DNA from: Escherichia phage vB_EcoM_JE01 | Sequence record: PQ471460.1 | Strand: one strand, 5' to 3' | DNA length: 64,000 nucleotides | Shown: positions 13,710-59,085 of the stretch, piece after piece | Numbering within the stretch: the first letter of the stretch is position 1 | Layout: each line of letters begins with the position of its first letter | Position numbers and translations under genes: made by a program | The notes under the pieces: generated by a model | Told to the model about the DNA's origin: nothing | Database searches by the model: none | Seen by the model: only the letters and a program-made list of their open reading frames with translations

Positions 13710-14283
13710 AAGATTTCTCCATTATACGTATAAGGTCGTTCATAAATGAATTGATGTCTGATTTTGCTATTATTTTTATTTGACGAAGTTTTTCATTTTC
13801 AAGAACAGCAGCTTCATACGTATCGACCGCAGCAAGTGCTCCTTCATATTGAGGATATTTTCTAGCTTTATCGCCTTTGTCATACCAAACATATGGGTTA
13901 TCATCATATGATATTAAATTATAAAATTTTTCACCATTCTCATTCACATGATATACTATTTGGTCTCCACCTACATTTTTGTATTTTTGGATAGATGCTT
14001 GATAAGCAGCTTCTTGCGAAGTAATCCATCCATAATACGGATCATAATTATCATTACACATCAATAAAACCCAATACAACTGTGGATTTCCATATATAGC
14101 GTTTGCTAATTCTTCCGGGCGTGGTGAACCTTTAATATAATAAGTACGTAAACGGTATCCCGCAAGAGCACGTTTGAAATAGTCTTTATAGTTTCTAAAA
14201 ATATCTGTCATAGGAATAGTCGGCGCGTTTTTATTCACCGTTTTGGCCGCATATTCAATCGGATCAAAAAATGTAAAGAGCAT
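13693..14283 (-). CDS. 53: baseplate wedge protein gp53
   Basis: 196 aa as in T4; divergent from gene 4 across a late-promoter region. Confidence 0.8.
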   Translation of the reverse strand: MLFTFFDPIEYAAKTVNKNAPTIPMTDIFRNYKDYFKRALAGYRLRTYYIKGSPRPEELANAIYGNPQLYWVLLMCNDNYDPYYGWITSQEAAYQASIQKYKNVGGDQIVYHVNENGEKFYNLISYDDNPYVWYDKGDKARKYPQYEGALAAVDTYEAAVLENEKLRQIKIIAKSDINSFMNDLIRIMEKSYGNDK

Positions 14284-14296
14284 GGGCCCTCCTGTT

Positions 14297-14304
14297 TATA
14301 AATA
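14297..14304 (+). promoter_or_regulatory. late promoter TATAAATA for gene 4 operon
   Basis: TATAAATA 27 nt upstream of gene 4 ATG; divergent arrangement with the gene 53 promoter. Confidence 0.65.
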
Positions 14305-14311
14305 TATTATC

Positions 14312-14319
14312 TATTTATA
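14312..14319 (-). promoter_or_regulatory. late promoter TATAAATA (minus strand) for gene 53 operon
   Basis: Plus-strand TATTTATA; SD AGGAGG (plus CCTCCT 14291-14296) then ATG. Confidence 0.65.
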
Positions 14320-14330
14320 AGGAGAATCCA

Positions 14331-14783
14331 ATGGCATATTCTGGAAAATGGGTTCCTAAAAATATATCAAAATATAGAGGTGACCCTAAAAAAATTACGT
14401 ATAGATCAAATTGGGAAAAATTCTTTTTTGAATGGTTAGATAAAAATCCAGAAATTATTGCATGGGGTAGTGAAACAGCAGTAATTCCTTATTTTTGTAA
14501 TGCAGAAGGGAAAAAACGTAGATACTTCATGGATATTTGGATGAAAGATTCTTCTGGACAAGAATTTTTTATTGAAATAAAGCCTAAAAAAGAAACACAA
14601 CCACCAGTTAAACCAGCACATCTAACAACTGCAGCGAAGAAAAGATTTATGAATGAAATTTATACATATTCCGTTAATACTGATAAATGGAAAGCAGCTC
14701 AAGCTTTAGCTGAAAAGCGCGGAATAAAATTTAGAATTTTAACAGAAGATGGATTACGAGCTCTTGGCTTTAAGGGGGCATAA
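14331..14783 (+). CDS. 4: head completion protein gp4
   Basis: 150 aa; [36 protein letters not shown]... matches T4 gp4. Confidence 0.9.
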
Positions 14784-15610
14784 TGGCTATTTTTCAAATA
14801 ATTAATGAAAGCACTCCCCAAGTTCCAAAGGTTAAGCAATCATTAAACGAAAAGAAATGGATTCAGATAGGTCTTGAATACATAAAGGCCAAAGCAAAAG
14901 GAATGACAGGAAAGCAATTTGCTGAAGAAAGAGGAATCAAATACTCTACGTTTACTTCGGCAATGTCAAAATATGCTTCAGGAATTAAAACGGCTGAAAA
15001 GATTCAAAAGCTTGAATCAAAACCAATGAATAAACTCAATAAGCAAGAAAGACAACTGCTTATGATAAATTCATTCAGGCAAACATTGCGTGATAAAATT
15101 CGTAATGAAGGTGCAGCAATTAATAATAAAACCAGAAAGTGGTTTGCTGAAACTATTAAGCAAGTAAAAGGACATAAAGTTGTTCGCCCGCAGCCGGGAC
15201 GAATATATGCTTTTGCTTACGATGCTAAACACAAAGAAACTCTTCCTTACTGGGATAAATTTCCTTTGATAATTTACCTCGGTTTAGGTAAACATAATTT
15301 AATGTACGGATTGAACTTGCACTATATTCCACCTAAAGCTCGTCAGCAATTTCTAGAAGAGCTTTTAAAGCAATATTCGAATACACCTACTATTACTAAT
15401 AAAACGAAATTAAAAATTGATTGGAGTCAAGTGAAAGGATTTAGGGGTGCAGATCAAATGATTAAGGCATATATACCCGGTAATATTATGGGTAGCCTTG
15501 TTGAAATCGCCCCGAAAGACTGGGCGAACGTTGTATTAATGCCACTCCAAAGCTTCTACTCCAAAGGAAAACGTTTCTCTGCAAACAAAGTTTGGAGCAA
15601 TGTACGATGA
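14783..15610 (+). CDS. 2: DNA end protector protein gp2
   Basis: 275 aa; TAATG overlap with gene 4; T4 gp2 position and size. Confidence 0.85.
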
Positions 15611-16266
15611 ATTATGAAAAAATTTATAATTCACTAATTGATAGGGCTCGCAATAGAGCCCTTACTGGATATAAAGAAAGACATCATATTATTCCGAAAT
15701 GTTTAGGCGGTAGTAATGATGCTTCTAACTTGGTTGATTTAACTCCAGAAGAGCATTATGTTGCACATCAACTATTAGTAAAAATACACCCAAATTCTTT
15801 AAAATTATCTTATGCGGCCATAAAAATGACGGTTTCAACTAAATATGTTAGGAGAAATAATAAAGTTTATGGTTGGTTAAAAAGAAAACATGCAAATAAT
15901 ATTTCAAATACACAAACTGGACGAAAATATTATAATAATGGTAAAAGATGTATAAAATTGCATGATGGAGATATAATTCCTGAGGGATTTATTTTAGGAA
16001 GAGGATGGAGTCCGACACAAGGCACAACTCATTCTAGAAAAAATGATACATTTAAAAACAAAAAGCTTCAATCTGCTTTAGCTAATAAACGGTGGGAAAA
16101 AGAAAAGAAAATAATGTTAGATAACTTTGGAGTTAGCACTATTGATGAAGCAAAGAAAATTGTTCTTGATTTTAAATCAACTTGTCATCCAAGATATTGG
16201 CGAAAGCCAACTTTAGAAAAATTTCCATTTATGACTTCTGCTCGTTTAAGAAGTCTAATAAATTAA
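15607..16266 (+). CDS. HNH homing endonuclease (Mob-like), inserted between genes 2 and 3
   Basis: ATG at 15607 in ATGA overlap with gene 2 stop (track start 15592 is TTG); motif [31 protein letters not shown]; paralog of minus-strand ORF 58328-59044. Confidence 0.8.
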
Positions 16267-16372
16267 TTCTATTATCTTCCATTCTTTTCTATTGTTTGTT
16301 CTAATTGGAATTGAATGGAAGGGACTTAGACCCATTATACCACCAACATTTATGAAGCATTATGAGGAATAT

Positions 16373-16903
16373 ATGTCGCAAGCACTACAACAAATTTTTA
16401 ACCAAGCAAATACAACTAACTTTGTAGTATCAATACCGCATAGTAATACTACATCTGCTTTTACTTTAAATGCTCAGTCAGTTCCTATTCCGGGAATTAG
16501 GATACCTGTTACTGATACCGTGACTGGGCCGTTTGGACTAGGCCGAGCACAACGTCCAGGTGTTACATTTGAGTACGACCCACTCATCGTGAGATTTATA
16601 GTTGATGAAGAGCTTAAGTCATGGATAGGAATGTATGAATGGATGCTAGGAACTAGTAACTATCTTACAGGCGAAAATACTGCCCAAAAAACAGGTCCTG
16701 AATACATTACGCTTTACATTTTAGATAATAGTAAAACTGAAATCGTGATGTCAATAAATTTTTATAAGCCTTGGGTTTCTGACCTGTCTGAAGTAGAATT
16801 TAGCTACACAGAAGATTCAGACCCAGCCTTAGTATGCACAGCAACGATTCCTTATACGTATTTTCAAGTAGAAAAAGATGGAAAAATTATAGCAGAAGTT
16901 TAA
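16373..16903 (+). CDS. 3: tail completion and sheath stabiliser gp3
   Basis: Track ORF starts at TTG 16292; ATG 16373 with GAGG SD gives 176 aa MSQALQQIFNQANTTNFVV..., T4 gp3 length. Confidence 0.85.
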   Translation: MSQALQQIFNQANTTNFVVSIPHSNTTSAFTLNAQSVPIPGIRIPVTDTVTGPFGLGRAQRPGVTFEYDPLIVRFIVDEELKSWIGMYEWMLGTSNYLTGENTAQKTGPEYITLYILDNSKTEIVMSINFYKPWVSDLSEVEFSYTEDSDPALVCTATIPYTYFQVEKDGKIIAEV

Positions 16904-16927
16904 TGCTTCAGTTTCATGTGTTATAAT
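16902..16927 (+). promoter_or_regulatory. MotA-dependent middle promoter candidate for gene 1
   Basis: MotA box AATGCTTCA, 11-nt spacer, -10 TATAAT. Confidence 0.5.
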
Positions 16928-16952
16928 CTTAACTAAATTTGAGGAGAAACAT

Positions 16953-17665
16953 ATGAAACTAATCTTTTTAAGTGGTGTAAAGCGTAGTGGAAAAGATACT
17001 ACTGCAGATTTTATTATGAATAATTATTCTGCAGTTAAATATCAACTTGCTGGTCCTATTAAGGATGCATTGGCTTATGCATGGGGTGTATTTGCAGCAA
17101 ACACTGGCTATCCTTGTTTAACTCGTAAAGAGTTTGAAGGAATTGACTATGATCGTGAAACTAATTTAAATCTGACTAAATTAGAAGTAATTACGATTAT
17201 GGAACAAGCATTTTGCTATCTTAATAGTAAAAGCCCAATTAAAGGTGTGTTTGTTTTTGATGACGCAGTTAATTTCGTAGCATTTAACAAGATTGCTGAC
17301 GTTATAAATAATATTGAAGATCAATGGTCAGTCCGTCGTCTGATGCAAGCCCTAGGTACGGATTTGATTGTTAATAACTTCGACCGCATGTATTGGGTAA
17401 AATTATTTGCTTTAGATTATCTTGATAAATTTAACTCAGGTTATGATTATTATATCGTTCCTGATACTCGTCAAGATCATGAAATGGATGCGGCTAGGGC
17501 GATGGGTGCTACAGTAATTCATGTAGTTCGTCCTGGTCAAAAATCCAATGATACTCATATTACAGAAGCTGGATTGCCAATTCGTGATGGCGATTTAGTA
17601 ATTACAAACGATGGTTCTCTTGAAGAACTTTTTTCTAAAATTAAAAATACACTAAAGGTACTATA

Positions 17666-19369: not shown

Positions 19370-19442
19370 TGGGAATTAGCCAAGTTGGTAAGGCACTGGA
19401 TTTTGATTCCAGGATGCAAAGGTTCGAGTCCTTTATTCCCAG
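19370..19442 (+). tRNA. tRNA-Gln (anticodon UUG)
   Basis: Cloverleaf folded by eye: acceptor TGGGAAT/ATTCCCA, anticodon loop TTTTGAT, T-loop GGTTCGAGTCC. Confidence 0.85.
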
Positions 19443-19443
19443 C

Positions 19444-19530
19444 GCGAGAATGGTCAAATTGGTAAAGGCACAGCACTTAAAATGCTGCGGAATGATTTCC
19501 TTGTGGGTTCGAGTCCCACTTCTCGTACCA
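19444..19530 (+). tRNA. tRNA-Leu (anticodon UAA), long variable arm, encoded CCA
   Basis: GCGAGAATGGTCAAATTGGTAAAGGCACAGCACTTAAAATGCTG...GTACCA. Confidence 0.85.
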
Positions 19531-19536
19531 AAGTTT

Positions 19537-19608
<72 letters not shown>

Positions 19609-19620
19609 AAATTTAATTTA

Positions 19621-19694
19621 CTCCGTGTAGCTCAGTTTGGTAGAGCGTCTGCTTTGGGAGCAGAATGTCGTAGGTTCAAATCCTGCCACGGAGA
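19621..19694 (+). tRNA. tRNA-Pro (anticodon UGG)
   Basis: Acceptor CTCCGTG/CACGGAG; anticodon loop TTTGGGA. Confidence 0.8.
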
Positions 19695-19696
19695 CT

Positions 19697-19783
19697 GGAG
19701 GCGTGGCAGAGTGGTTTAATGCACCGGTCTTGAAAACCGGCAGTCGCTCCGGCGACTCATAGGTTCAAATCCTATCGCCTCCG
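19697..19783 (+). tRNA. tRNA-Ser (anticodon UGA), long variable arm
   Basis: Acceptor GGAGGCG/CGCCTCC; anticodon loop CTTGAAA. Confidence 0.8.
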
Positions 19784-19790
19784 TAATTTC

Positions 19791-19863
19791 GCTGATTTAG
19801 CTCAGTAGGTAGAGCAACTCACTTGTAATGAGAAGGTCGGCGGTTCGATTCCGTCAATCAGCA
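19791..19863 (+). tRNA. tRNA-Thr (anticodon UGU)
   Basis: Acceptor GCTGATT/AATCAGC; anticodon loop CTTGTAA. Confidence 0.8.
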
Positions 19864-19869
19864 TATCAA

Positions 19870-19941
19870 GGCCCTGTAGCTGGAAGGTTCAAGCAAGCGA
19901 CTCATAATCGCCAGATGGTGGTTCAATTCCACCCAGGGCCA
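19870..19941 (+). tRNA. tRNA-Ile (anticodon CAU, presumably lysidine-modified)
   Basis: Acceptor GGCCCTG/CAGGGCC; anticodon loop CTCATAA; T-arm GGTGGTTCAATTCCACC. Confidence 0.7.
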
Positions 19942-19953
19942 TATTTTGAGAAC

Positions 19954-19960
19954 ATAAATA
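19954..19960 (+). promoter_or_regulatory. late-promoter-like box (CATAAATA) upstream of segB-like gene
   Basis: ATAAATA core about 25 nt upstream of ATG 19983. Confidence 0.35.
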
Positions 19961-19982
19961 CTCTTAGAAATAGGAGATATTT

Positions 19983-20648
19983 ATGTTCCATTACATTTAT
20001 AAAATAACAAATAAAATTAATAATAAAATCTACATAGGCGCTCATTCTACCGAAAATTTAGATGATGGATATATGGGTTCTGGTAAATTATTAAAAAGGG
20101 CCCAAGATAAGTATGGTATAGAAAATTTTTCTAAAGAAATATTAGAGTTCTTTGACGATAAAACCTCTATGTTTGAGTCAGAAAAGAATATTGTGACTGA
20201 AGAGTTTTTAAAGCGCCCTGATGTTTATAATTTGAAATTAGGTGGTGAAGGTGGTTGGGACCATTTAAACACTAAAGAATATTTGGATAAAAAGAAAGAA
20301 GCTTCCTTAAAAGGAGCTGCCGCTTTTAAAACCAGATTTGAGAACGACCCAGACCTTAAAGAAAAATATCGTAAAATGGGTTCAGAAAGGTTTAAACAGC
20401 TTTGGGATAATCCTAAGTATAGAGAGAAATTTTTAAATACTAAATCTTTCTTGGGTAAGACCCATACTCCTGAAACTATTAATAAAATGAAAGAATCTCA
20501 CGCCAGAAATAAACACCAACAAGGTGAAAAGAATTCCCAATTTGGCATGATGTGGGTTCATTCATTAGATGAAAAAGTTTCTAAACGTATTAAGAAAACT
20601 GACCCAATTCCAGAAGGATGGTTTAAAGGTCGAAAAATGAAATTTTAA
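19983..20648 (+). CDS. segB: GIY-YIG homing endonuclease (SegB-like) embedded in tRNA cluster
   Basis: 221 aa; N-terminal GIY-YIG module KIYIGAHS...GYMGSGKLLKRA; lies between tRNA-Ile and tRNA-Arg as T4 segB does. Confidence 0.75.
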   Translation: MFHYIYKITNKINNKIYIGAHSTENLDDGYMGSGKLLKRAQDKYGIENFSKEILEFFDDKTSMFESEKNIVTEEFLKRPDVYNLKLGGEGGWDHLNTKEYLDKKKEASLKGAAAFKTRFENDPDLKEKYRKMGSERFKQLWDNPKYREKFLNTKSFLGKTHTPETINKMKESHARNKHQQGEKNSQFGMMWVHSLDEKVSKRIKKTDPIPEGWFKGRKMKF

Positions 20649-20651
20649 CTA

Positions 20652-20728
<77 letters not shown>

Positions 20729-56650: not shown

Positions 56651-58335
56651 AGAATTTTAAACTAAACCGAGTTAGGTATCAAAATATAATGTCAGTAGGT
56701 GGAAATCCTATTGACATTCAACTAGATAAGGTTCAAAAAACTCTTATTACTGGACGAAATGGCGGTGGTAAGTCTACTATGTTAGAAGCCATCACATTTG
56801 GGCTTTTTGGCAAGCCATTTCGTGATGTAAAGAAAGGTCAATTAATAAACAGCACAAATAAGAAAGAACTTTTAGTTGAACTGTGGATGGAATATGATGA
56901 GAAAAAGTACTATATCAAAAGAGGGCAAAAACCAAACGTTTTCGAAATCACCGTTAACGGTACACGTCTTAATGAATCTGCCAGCAGTAAAGATTTCCAA
57001 GCAGAATTTGAACAGCTTATCGGAATGTCATACGCCAGTTTCAAACAGATCGTCGTACTCGGCACGGCTGGATATACCCCTTTCATGGGCCTATCCACTC
57101 CTGCAAGAAGAAAACTCGTCGAAGACCTTCTCGAAGTAGGAACATTAGCTGAAATGGATAAGCTTAATAAAGCACTAATACGTGAATTAAATTCACAAAA
57201 CCAAGTGCTTGATGTTAAAAAAGATAGTATTATCCAACAAATTAAAATATATAATGATAACGTTGAACGCCAGAAAAAATTAACTGGTGATAACCTTACT
57301 CGTTTGCAGAATATGTATGATGATTTGGCAAAAGAAGCTAGAACGCTAAAATCGGAAATAGAAGAAGCTAATGAAAGATTAGTTAATATTGTTTTGGATG
57401 AAGACCCGACTGATGCATTTAATAAAATCGGTCAAGAAGCATTTTTAATTAAATCAAAAATTGACTCGTATAATAAAGTCATTAATATGTATCACGAAGG
57501 TGGATTATGTCCAACCTGTTTGTCACAATTAAGTTCCGGTGATAAAGTTGTTTCTAAAATTAAAGATAAAGTTTCTGAATGCACGCATTCGTTTGAACAG
57601 CTTTCAACACATCGTGATAATTTAAAAGTTCTTGTCGATGAATACCGAGATAATATTAAAACCCAACAGTCATTGGCAAATGATATTCGCAATAAAAAGC
57701 AATCTCTAATCACGACGGTAGATAAAGCTAAAAAAGTTAAAGCGGCTATAGAAAAAGCATCATCTGAGTTTATTGACCATGCTGATGAAATAGCACTGCT
57801 TCAAGAAGAACTTGATAAAATTGTTAAGACAAAAACTAATTTAGTAATGGAAAAATACCACAGAGGAATTTTGACTGACATGCTCAAAGATTCTGGTATT
57901 AAAGGTGCTATTATTAAAAAGTACATTCCATTATTTAATAAGCAGATTAACCATTATCTTAAAATAATGGAAGCGGATTATGTGTTTACATTAGATGAAG
58001 AATTTAATGAGACAATTAAATCCCGTGGTCGTGAAGATTTTAGTTATGCTTCATTTAGTCAAGGTGAAAAAGCACGAATTGATATTGCTCTTTTATTTAC
58101 TTGGCGTGATATTGCTGAAAAAGTTTCAGGTGTTAAAATAAGCTGTTTATTTCTTGATGAAGTATATGACGGTGCATTTGATGCTGAAGGTATTAAAAAT
58201 GTAGCTAAAATTTTAGATGGTTTGAAGGATACCAACTTCTTCATAATTTCGCATAAAGACCATGACCCACAAGAATATGGTCAGCATATTCAGATGGAAA
58301 AAGTTGGTAGATTTAGTTTAGCTAAGATTAGCTAG
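56647..58335 (+). CDS. 46: recombination endonuclease subunit gp46 (Rad50-like ATPase)
   Basis: 562 aa; GTG start after AAGGA SD; Walker A GRNGGGKST, zinc hook CPTC, signature SFSQGEKARID, Walker B LFLDEV. Confidence 0.9.
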   Translation: MKNFKLNRVRYQNIMSVGGNPIDIQLDKVQKTLITGRNGGGKSTMLEAITFGLFGKPFRDVKKGQLINSTNKKELLVELWMEYDEKKYYIKRGQKPNVFEITVNGTRLNESASSKDFQAEFEQLIGMSYASFKQIVVLGTAGYTPFMGLSTPARRKLVEDLLEVGTLAEMDKLNKALIRELNSQNQVLDVKKDSIIQQIKIYNDNVERQKKLTGDNLTRLQNMYDDLAKEARTLKSEIEEANERLVNIVLDEDPTDAFNKIGQEAFLIKSKIDSYNKVINMYHEGGLCPTCLSQLSSGDKVVSKIKDKVSECTHSFEQLSTHRDNLKVLVDEYRDNIKTQQSLANDIRNKKQSLITTVDKAKKVKAAIEKASSEFIDHADEIALLQEELDKIVKTKTNLVMEKYHRGILTDMLKDSGIKGAIIKKYIPLFNKQINHYLKIMEADYVFTLDEEFNETIKSRGREDFSYASFSQGEKARIDIALLFTWRDIAEKVSGVKISCLFLDEVYDGAFDAEGIKNVAKILDGLKDTNFFIISHKDHDPQEYGQHIQMEKVGRFSLAKIS

Positions 58336-59044
58336 GTTTATATTTACAGTTATCATTATGCCATCTTGATAAATTTCCGAAAGTGGTAACTTTACCACAA
58401 TGGACGCAAGTACCAGTCTTTTCAGTTTTCTTGCGTCCATTTGGATTTTTCTTGCAGAAATTTCTATGCGCTGCGATAACGCATTTCTTGCCTATCATTC
58501 CACAGAATTCGCAGGATGTTTCTTCAAGAACGATTGCTTTAAGCCCGTTTGAGATATTATTTCTGTGTTCTTTAGACATTGGTGGTCTAACTTTAGGATT
58601 AGGGTGATTTGGACAGTTATCAAAATGCCAACGATTCATATTCCCGCTTAATCCAGACTTACCGCAATGAGGACAAGTTAGTCTTGCTTTATTAGCTACT
58701 GCATCAGACATTTTCTTTCGTGTCTCCTGGGAGAATTCTTTGTTCTTTTCTATTTCCCAGAGTTTACGACGAATCCAACCGAAAGTTTTATTGTTGCGTT
58801 TAGCGTATTTCGTGGAAACTGTCATCATGTTAGCAGCATAGACTAATTTTGGTTCAGAAGGATAAATTTTTACTAAAAGTTGATGAGCTACATAGTGCTC
58901 TTCTGGCGTTAAATCTACTAAGTTTGAAGCATCATCACTACCGTTTAAACAGCGTGGTATAATGTGATGAGATTCAGTATAGCAATCAAGTTTTCGAGAT
59001 TTAGCATTAGAGATTAACTTTTCATAAATTAGTTTATAATTCAT
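58328..59044 (-). CDS. HNH homing endonuclease with three C-terminal zinc-finger repeats, antisense to flanking operon
   Basis: 238 aa; N-terminal [32 protein letters not shown] paralogous to ORF 15607-16266; C-terminal repeats CPHCGKSG...RWHFDNC, CEFCG...C, CVHCGKV...RWHNDNC. Confidence 0.8.
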   Translation of the reverse strand: MNYKLIYEKLISNAKSRKLDCYTESHHIIPRCLNGSDDASNLVDLTPEEHYVAHQLLVKIYPSEPKLVYAANMMTVSTKYAKRNNKTFGWIRRKLWEIEKNKEFSQETRKKMSDAVANKARLTCPHCGKSGLSGNMNRWHFDNCPNHPNPKVRPPMSKEHRNNISNGLKAIVLEETSCEFCGMIGKKCVIAAHRNFCKKNPNGRKKTEKTGTCVHCGKVTTFGNLSRWHNDNCKYKPS

Positions 59045-59077: not shown

Positions 59078-59085
59078 TATTTATA
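59078..59085 (-). promoter_or_regulatory. late promoter TATAAATA (minus strand) driving the HNH endonuclease
   Basis: Minus-strand reads CGTATAAATATG...AAGGATATGTT-ATG; TATAAATA then SD AAGGA 7 nt before start. Confidence 0.6.

Follow-up and report, generated by a model that had tools for sequence, protein, structure and literature searches.

A probable Mob-type HNH homing endonuclease gene inserted at the end of gene 2 in a T4-like coliphage

The DNA analysed here, a stretch of 64,000 nt of Escherichia phage vB_EcoM_JE01 (PQ471460.1) that we call the window, comes from a T4-like coliphage of the genus Tequatrovirus. Around the late genes of interest the order is 5 and 53 on the minus strand, followed on the plus strand by 4, 2, an ORF with an HNH motif, 3 and 1 (Table 1). 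The ATG of the HNH ORF (15607-15609) overlaps the TGA of gene 2 (15608-15610) in the sequence ATGA. Phage T4 (NC_000866) has at this place a 106-nt spacer between genes 2 and 3, without an ORF. The preliminary description of this DNA had pointed to the ATGA overlap, and had stated that T4 has no gene between 2 and 3; both statements are borne out. It had further described an HNH gene inserted in the late operon, and so it is, but the insert is not a new one. Phage RB32 has this gene in the identical place, as ORF146c, which its annotation of 2006 calls a 'putative site-specific intron-like DNA endonuclease; similar to mobB; not conserved from T4 position', and VR7 ORF161c bears an annotation akin to it. 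Identical or nearly identical genes are found in RB33, HY03, vB_EcoM_112, fPS-2 and other phages. There is no substantive difference between RB32 and the window, the C-terminal half of the protein being 99.2% identical and the 2.3-kb locus 97.3% identical at the DNA level. By sequence, then, the gene is an already known one, an orthologue of RB32 ORF146c that was annotated by similarity; a search of the literature found no paper on this endonuclease gene or on the gene 2/3 locus.

Table 1. Features of the gene 2/gene 3 region and the paralogous gene, by position in the window
Feature	Position	Strand	Basis or remark
T4 late-promoter consensus TATAAATA	14297-14304	+	Upstream of gene 4; sole exact plus-strand match in 14297-17303
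Gene 4	14331-14783	+	T4-like gene order
Gene 2 (DNA end protector), 275 aa	14783-15610	+	C-terminus ...KVWSNVR* vs ...KVWSNI* in T4
Linked cluster of 9-10 substitutions in gene 2	15547-15562	+	Fixed in 6/6 carrier/remnant alleles; LQSFYSK vs LQQFVSK in T4
29-nt block AAAGGAAAACGTTTCTCTGCAAACAAAGT, encoding 10 residues	15563-15591	+	Same in carrier and most empty alleles
Recoded gene 2 end, carried with the insert	15592-15610	+	Allele alignment
Mob-family HNH homing endonuclease gene (supported by sequence), 219 aa	15607-16266	+	RB32 ORF146c orthologue
N-terminal HNH nuclease domain, aa 1-94	15607-15888	+	BLASTP, alignment, structure model
Middle module, aa 94-132, G.xYYNNG...IPEGF.GR	15886-16002	+	Predicted beta-hairpin
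C-terminal four-helix domain, aa 152-219	16060-16263	+	Predicted; private to gene 2/gene 3 junction proteins
Endonuclease stop and spacer to gene 3	16264-16373	+	Aligns with T4 2-3 spacer
Gene 3 (tail completion protein), 176 aa	16374-16903	+	ATG at 16374 matches the T4 gp3 start
Paralogous Mob-like HNH gene, 238 aa	58328-59044	-	Between genes 46 and 45.2

What sort of insertion is this? The preliminary description had proposed that an alignment of the 2-3 junction with insert-free phages would define the homing site; what the alignment defines, to the nucleotide, is the empty site. When the window is aligned with T4 and three other insert-free genomes, the 668 nt from 15596 to 16263 stand where the empty allele has the 9 nt TCAAATATC. 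Gene 2 ends with GTC TGG TCA AAT ATC TAA in T4 and with GTT TGG AGC AAT GTA CGA TGA in the window, so that gene 2 in the carrier closes with Val-Arg-stop. The synonymous change of the Ser codon, TCA to AGC, yields the sequence GGAG (15593-15596), 10 nt ahead of the endonuclease ATG. At the other edge, the endonuclease TAA occupies the exact position of the gene 2 stop codon in the empty alleles, and the spacer that follows is of T4 type, with scattered substitutions only, and opens with the conserved TCTATTATC. By these alignments the insert falls after the last sense codons of gene 2 and ahead of its stop codon. At its 3' end the endonuclease ORF resembles the gene 2 terminus, so that homology between the two is possible. 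The resemblance may be coincidental, because the C-terminus of the endonuclease protein (...L-I-K/N) is conserved in its own right.

Neither direct nor inverted terminal repeats are present at either edge of the insert, and on that ground we reject an origin as a transposon or IS element. Nor does the gene have the setting of the intron-encoded HNH enzymes, such as I-HmuI and I-TevIII, whose ORFs lie within group I introns: no Rfam match to a group I intron was found at gathering thresholds within the window, and the ORF comes directly after gene 2 and is followed by the T4-matching spacer. The placement is that of the Mob genes, that is, intergenic, on the plus strand and oriented like its neighbours.

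The affiliation of the protein was examined by several routes. In BLASTP comparisons with the T4 Mob proteins the E values were 1e-29 for MobB, 2e-26 for MobE, 1e-22 for MobD, 2e-17 for MobC and 4e-6 for MobA; identity to MobB-E in the nuclease domain is 34-62%, over the N-terminal 63-134 aa. Among the Seg proteins, which together with the Mob proteins the preliminary description had named for comparison, only the middle module of SegE is matched. The GIY-YIG class is thereby not indicated, as BLASTP against T4 SegA-G, I-TevI and I-TevII returned this short module alone and no catalytic domain. The catalytic His and Asn residues, on which the preliminary description had staked its assignment, are present: in 29 aligned homologues H26, H27, N41, H50 and H54 never vary, and a family profile aligns the HH...N...H pattern to the HNH motifs of McrA (E = 0.0023) and of a group II intron maturase (E = 0.0087). 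The AlphaFold2 model predicts strands at 24-27 and 42-45 and a helix at 47-60, all with pLDDT >90, in the strand-strand-helix order expected for HNH, a fold to which the Foldseek matches given below are marginal. The protein also matches PHROG 655, 'homing endonuclease', with E = 9e-59.

Matches to the general domain libraries are weaker. The Pfam models HNH_5 (17.8 bits, cut-off 27.5) and HNH (16.5 bits, cut-off 21.4) both score below their gathering thresholds, and sub-threshold Pfam HNH matches are found in 25 of the 29 family members. We conclude that the Mob subfamily is poorly covered by the Pfam HNH models, which weakens formal Pfam membership and leaves the motif evidence as it was. 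NCBIfam gave nothing beyond a far sub-threshold match to the IscB HNH, and a PDB sequence search with the single protein gave nothing at E <= 1. The best Foldseek matches in the PDB are HNH domains (Cas8-HNH, probability 0.89), marginal at E = 0.5 or higher; I-HmuI was retrieved by neither the sequence nor the fold search. The Mob matches, the PHROG 655 assignment, and the sporadic distribution and decayed copies described below support the identification of the protein as an HNH homing endonuclease, first offered in the preliminary description, and its placement among the free-standing enzymes of the T4 Mob family, both drawn from sequence comparison.

The AlphaFold2 model (mean pLDDT 89) has three structured parts and a low-confidence linker, in which confidence falls over about aa 131-160 and is <50 at 143-148. 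The preliminary description had proposed a layout of two parts, a shared nuclease and a private C-terminus. Those two parts stand, and to them must be added a third, the middle module of aa 94-132. Mob proteins consist of an HNH domain and distinct C-terminal regions (PMC2988022). The middle module recurs in hundreds of Mob-like proteins whose match to the query is confined to its first 60%, and T4 SegE has two copies of it, at residues 108-145 and 152-192. Beyond about aa 130 there is no similarity to the T4 Mob proteins or to the second HNH protein of the window, whose gene stands between 46 and 45.2, two genes that are direct neighbours in T4. The C-terminal four-helix domain, which gives weak helix-turn-helix-like matches, is presumed to be the site-specific DNA-binding domain.

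The second HNH gene is instructive in this respect. Its product is 69% identical to aa 1-94 of the gene 2/3 endonuclease (BLASTP E = 2e-45), and past residue 94 there is no significant similarity, so the paralogy of the N-terminal parts and the unrelatedness of the C-terminal halves, both asserted in the preliminary description, are confirmed. The C-terminus of the paralogue has CxxC...H..C repeats, as in an I-TevIII-like zinc finger, and matches the T4 I-TevIII remnant with E = 2e-7. The paralogue too is sporadic, being found in 59 of 658 records. Have the two nuclease domains exchanged sequence recently? In the DNA of the two N-terminal regions the differences are mostly synonymous and are scattered through the conserved core, and because they are so scattered we rule out a recent gene conversion. 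The proposal of a common nuclease joined to differing DNA-binding tails also holds up in a wider comparison, in which the C-terminal domain goes with the gene 2/3 locus from one genus to another.

How does the gene compare with the better known endonucleases? MobE, encoded between nrdA and nrdB of T4, is 62% identical in the N-terminal HNH region over 63 aa. Both genes are free-standing, promoterless and co-transcribed with the upstream gene, the lack of a promoter and the co-transcription being predicted in the present case, and in both cases carrier polymorphisms lie beside a conserved block in a neighbouring essential gene (PMC2790892). MobE differs in being a 141-aa protein with another C-terminus that targets nrdB in a nucleotide-metabolism cluster, and its nicking has been mapped in vivo; the gene described here, unlike mobE, belongs to a late structural operon and shares bases with the stop codon of the gene before it. 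MobB, MobC and MobD share the nuclease domain MNY...HHIIP.C.GG.D..NLV.LT.EEH..AH with 34-53% identity, and the MobB and MobC alignments run past it. These three have other C-terminal regions and other positions, in the alpha-gt, nrdG/nrdD and nrdC.11 regions (PMC2988022). SegE has the module G.xY.NNG...(I/V)P(E/D)GF(I/V).GR in common with the present protein, its catalytic domain being GIY-YIG and not HNH; the similarity is short, with a score of 31.6 bits obtained against a set of no more than nine proteins. The sharing of this module would fit the 'beads on a string' view of DNA-binding modules, and illustrates the exchange of such modules between the HNH and GIY-YIG families. I-HmuI, an intron-encoded HNH nicking endonuclease of Bacillus phage SPO1, has the design expected here, monomeric and extended, with an HNH domain and modular DNA-binding parts (PMC2790892). 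The gene in the window, unlike that of I-HmuI, lies outside any intron.

A related question is how the gene is expressed. The plus strand has no exact late-promoter consensus between the TATAAATA upstream of gene 4 and the endonuclease ORF; the scan was for the perfect consensus only, and weaker promoters could still occur. No terminator-like site was seen on the plus strand from 14200 to 17000. A 4-2-HNH-3 transcript probably starts at the promoter upstream of gene 4. Since this is the sole exact consensus between 14297 and 17303, and no terminator-like site follows, the endonuclease gene seems to lack its own promoter and to be transcribed along with genes 4 and 2, much as mobE is with nrdA. 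In all of the seven orthologues compared the endonuclease start overlaps the gene 2 stop, as ATGA or TTGA in five and as TAATG in two, and such conservation points to translational coupling to gene 2. Late expression coupled to gene 2, which the preliminary description had put forward, is plausible given the promoter position and the conserved overlap. An RNA hairpin is predicted at 15571-15603, over the GGAG (z = -3.5). Six orthologous junctions are without a comparable fold, and we have ruled the hairpin out as a conserved regulatory feature of the ribosome binding site.

The insert is far from being common to all T-even genomes, a point on which the preliminary description had made its proposal depend. 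It is present in 36 of the 511 Tequatrovirus records that match the flanks (about 7%), RB32 among them, and a search with the locus of the Dhakavirus QL01 found the gene in 9 of 58 matching records (about 16%). With the C-terminal 123 residues (aa 97-219) as query, tblastn found 77 phage records, 40 of which are of other genera with 46-62% identity. The gene lies between 2 and 3 in every divergent record inspected: QL01, VR7 (Gaprivervirus), the Acinetobacter phage Morttis (Twarogvirinae), Cronus (Erwinia), Serratia phage 4S and the metagenome contig L013.

Is the product still an active enzyme, or a relic? In the latter case the gene would be a Mob-family member that has lost DNA cutting and is kept by linkage to essential late genes, or that arrived too recently for decay. 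Decay certainly occurs. In CT01 an in-frame deletion of 486 nt takes out the HNH motif and leaves a 57-aa ORF, in FL23 a 1-nt deletion at the equivalent of 15786 causes a frameshift, FL44 has the same split annotation as FL23, and in Manna the 3' end of the gene is altered. T4 mobA and I-TevIII are themselves defective (PMC2988022), so that an intact ORF is no proof of activity; the copies in CT01, FL23 and FL44 are what a relic would lead one to expect. Against this, the copy in the window is of full length with every catalytic residue intact, and in the C-terminal half 28 of the 37 Tequatrovirus copies share an identity of at least 99%. Moreover, full-length orthologues with 46-63% identity are found in several genera, and because these diverged proteins keep their motifs throughout all three parts we take the protein to be under purifying selection. 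We consider a relic quite unlikely.

One might also think that a nuclease so placed has been domesticated, and serves the phage in DNA-end protection by gp2 or packaging, or in the exclusion of competitors, rather than being purely selfish. The position right after gene 2, kept together with translational coupling in two subfamilies of the Straboviridae, is in keeping with this, and there is a precedent in HK97-like phages, where HNH proteins encoded beside the terminase genes help cos cleavage (PMC10448857). Yet the gene is found in only about 7% of the Tequatrovirus records and about 16% of those matching the QL01 locus, insert-free relatives, T4 included, are fully viable, and viable phages with frameshifted or deleted copies have been isolated. 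The exclusion of competitor markers, for its part, is the same biochemical act as homing and offers no distinct mechanism. Domestication seems to us highly improbable.

Where would a homing enzyme of this kind cut? We compared six carrier or remnant alleles with three or four T4-type empty alleles over 2.3 kb, drawing the alleles from GenBank records because a scan of IMG/VR was without the carrier junction; the empty junction was found there in three contigs. Overall, the identity of the flanks does not sort by carrier status. Fixed differences between carrier and T4-type alleles are found at 15547-15559, 15592 and 15596-15602 alone, all within the last ~60 nt of gene 2. Between the upstream cluster and the recoded terminus is the 29-nt block, which varies only at 15586, by a single SNP of the empty allele L014. 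MobE nicks its bipartite target strand-specifically, and polymorphisms shield the carrier genome (PMC2790892); of the two elements proposed for its site, one is conserved and is where the C-terminal module binds, and the other is polymorphic and is where the nick falls (PMC2790892). On the model of MobE (PMC2790892), the 29-nt block is a candidate site for the DNA-binding domain, and the candidate target as a whole would parallel the bipartite site proposed for that enzyme (PMC2790892).

The cluster at 15547-15562 also occurs outside the carriers. With a 76-nt probe over this region, 500 records fell into two classes, T4 type with 448 records (80-90% identity) and carrier type with 52 (90% or more). 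The carrier-type class comprises every one of the 36 carriers, CT01, and about 15 phages that lack the insert, LH2, SG1 and F26 among them. Five of these insert-free phages were opened, and are empty with a gene 2 terminus of T4 type. In Dhakavirus the carrier QL01 and the empty LHE83 differ only at the last two codons, at one wobble base and by the insertion; the upstream cluster does not distinguish them. In the Tequatrovirus carriers the cluster reads QSFYSK, which resembles QAFYSK of the VR7 allele. From these comparisons the cluster could be either imported donor flank, or a partial immunity determinant forming the polymorphic half of the target site. Its presence in about 15 insert-free phages and its absence from the QL01-LHE83 comparison mean that it may be hitch-hiking donor sequence, and we do not take its role in immunity as proven. 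Within the putative target the junction itself is the surest part, consisting of ...AAAGTNTGG, two or three codons, TAA and TCTATTATC, the last conserved in both genera.

It is possible that an active enzyme cuts at a distance, either within gene 3 or on the other side, in an earlier part of gene 2 or in gene 4, in the way that SegG, SegF and MobE cut a neighbouring gene. Free-standing endonucleases of T4 often cut tens to hundreds of bp from their own genes (PMC2988022, PMC2790892), and the cluster at 15547-15562 is itself 35-50 bp from the insertion point. The 2.3-kb comparison speaks to this directly, since no fixed difference between carrier and empty alleles is found beyond 15547-15602, so that a distant site in the carrier would be left without protection. 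In the same vein, over about 100 nt around the gene 2 terminus QL01 departs from three insert-free relatives only in the last two codons, one wobble base and the insertion. A distant cleavage site is on balance rather unlikely.

We therefore return to the reading that the ORF is a free-standing homing endonuclease gene of the T4 Mob (HNH) type, set at the end of gene 2 and spreading by homing of the MobE/MobA kind, to which we assign a probability of about 85%. A scenario for its spread can be pieced together by analogy with MobE and MobA (PMC2988022, PMC2790892) and from the allele comparisons. The gene would be transcribed late, from the promoter upstream of gene 4, and ribosomes that complete gene 2 would give a low level of translation. 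When a carrier and an insert-free phage infect the same cell, the endonuclease would bind the conserved end of gene 2 and the adjoining spacer in the insert-free genome, and make a nick or cut close to the gene 2 terminus; nicking is known for both MobA and MobE (PMC2988022). Recombinational repair off the carrier genome would then copy in the endonuclease gene together with the recoded terminus of gene 2. The carrier genome itself would be immune, the insertion and the linked substitutions breaking up the site.

What history might lie behind this arrangement? One tentative possibility, which we hold to be somewhat doubtful, is that the endonucleases of the gene 2 terminus form an old lineage, faithful to one locus in two subfamilies of the Straboviridae, the Tevenvirinae of enterobacteria and the Twarogvirinae of Acinetobacter. 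Expression would then be wholly by termination-reinitiation, the four-helix domain would have co-diverged with the gene 2 terminus, and the approximately 15 insert-free genomes with the cluster would represent an 'empty but resistant' stage of homing. If this were true, the lineage would be a natural series of matched enzyme and target variants for the study of how an HNH nickase is retargeted.

For those who compare or engineer T4-like genomes, the gene is to be treated as an optional selfish insert. An annotation label is due, that of a Mob-type HNH homing endonuclease and orthologue of RB32 ORF146c, and the gene has little importance beyond its correct annotation. The three natural classes of allele, carrier, T4-type empty and empty with the cluster, along with the diverged orthologues at the same site, form a set with which the target and immunity determinants of a Mob enzyme might be mapped.

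About 15 insert-free Tequatrovirus genomes, which lack the Mob-family HNH endonuclease gene at the gene 2/gene 3 junction, carry the endonuclease-linked substitution cluster of gene 2 together with a T4-type gene 2 terminus (five are listed in the table). In one of these, LH2, the linked T at 15592 is also present. Such genomes may have arisen by recombination, or they may represent either empty alleles that are resistant or an ancestral allele that was once invaded. The linked substitutions also give rise to a perfect 9-bp direct repeat, ACTCCAAAG, at 15544-15552 and 15558-15566 (spacing 14 bp), which the T4-type gene 2 allele lacks. What accounts for this repeat? It could be due to chance or to templated mutation, or it could be part of a binding site.

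At the 3' end of the endonuclease gene, the Salmonella phage Manna homologue carries the T4-type gene 2 terminus, reading ...AGTCAAATATCTAA (equivalent to window 16256-16291). A shifted frame then crosses the spacer into gene 3, and the whole is annotated as a single 431-aa protein, which could be a true fusion or a sequencing error. The gene 2-3 spacer of the window contains an inverted repeat, CTTCCATTC...GAATGGAAG, at 16276-16321; T4 also has this inverted repeat, and Dhakavirus spacers likewise contain the GAATGGAA motif.

The second Mob-like HNH gene encodes three I-TevIII-like zinc-finger repeats, has an 8-nt overlap with the gene 46 stop and is preceded by a late-promoter match of its own; 59 of the 658 related records contain this gene. 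Both flanking genes are oriented opposite to it. Nearly all endonuclease genes in the T4 annotation table are oriented as their neighbours are. Exact late-promoter matches also occur between genes 53 and 4, where two lie in opposite directions within 14297-14319. Elsewhere in the window, eight tRNA genes are clustered at 19370-20725, an arrangement like that of the T4 tRNA region.

Features of the window, with the equivalent region in insert-free genomes
Feature	Position	Strand	Remarks
Late-promoter match, exact TATAAATA	14297-14304	+	between genes 53 and 4
Late-promoter match, exact TATAAATA	14312-14319	-	between genes 53 and 4
Insert-free cluster genomes LH2, vB_SsoM_113, SG1, F26, T4_ev151	equivalent to 15547-15610		
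Endonuclease middle module, G.xYYNNG...IPEGF.GR	15886-16002		aa 94-132
Second Mob-like HNH gene	58328-59044	-	between genes 46 and 45.2
Late-promoter match, exact TATAAATA	59078-59085	-	34 nt upstream of second Mob-like HNH gene

The middle module of the endonuclease, for which Pfam has no model, is matched by two tandem segments of the T4 GIY-YIG endonuclease SegE. Because of this match, the sequences suggest that HNH and GIY-YIG homing endonucleases have a DNA-binding module in common.
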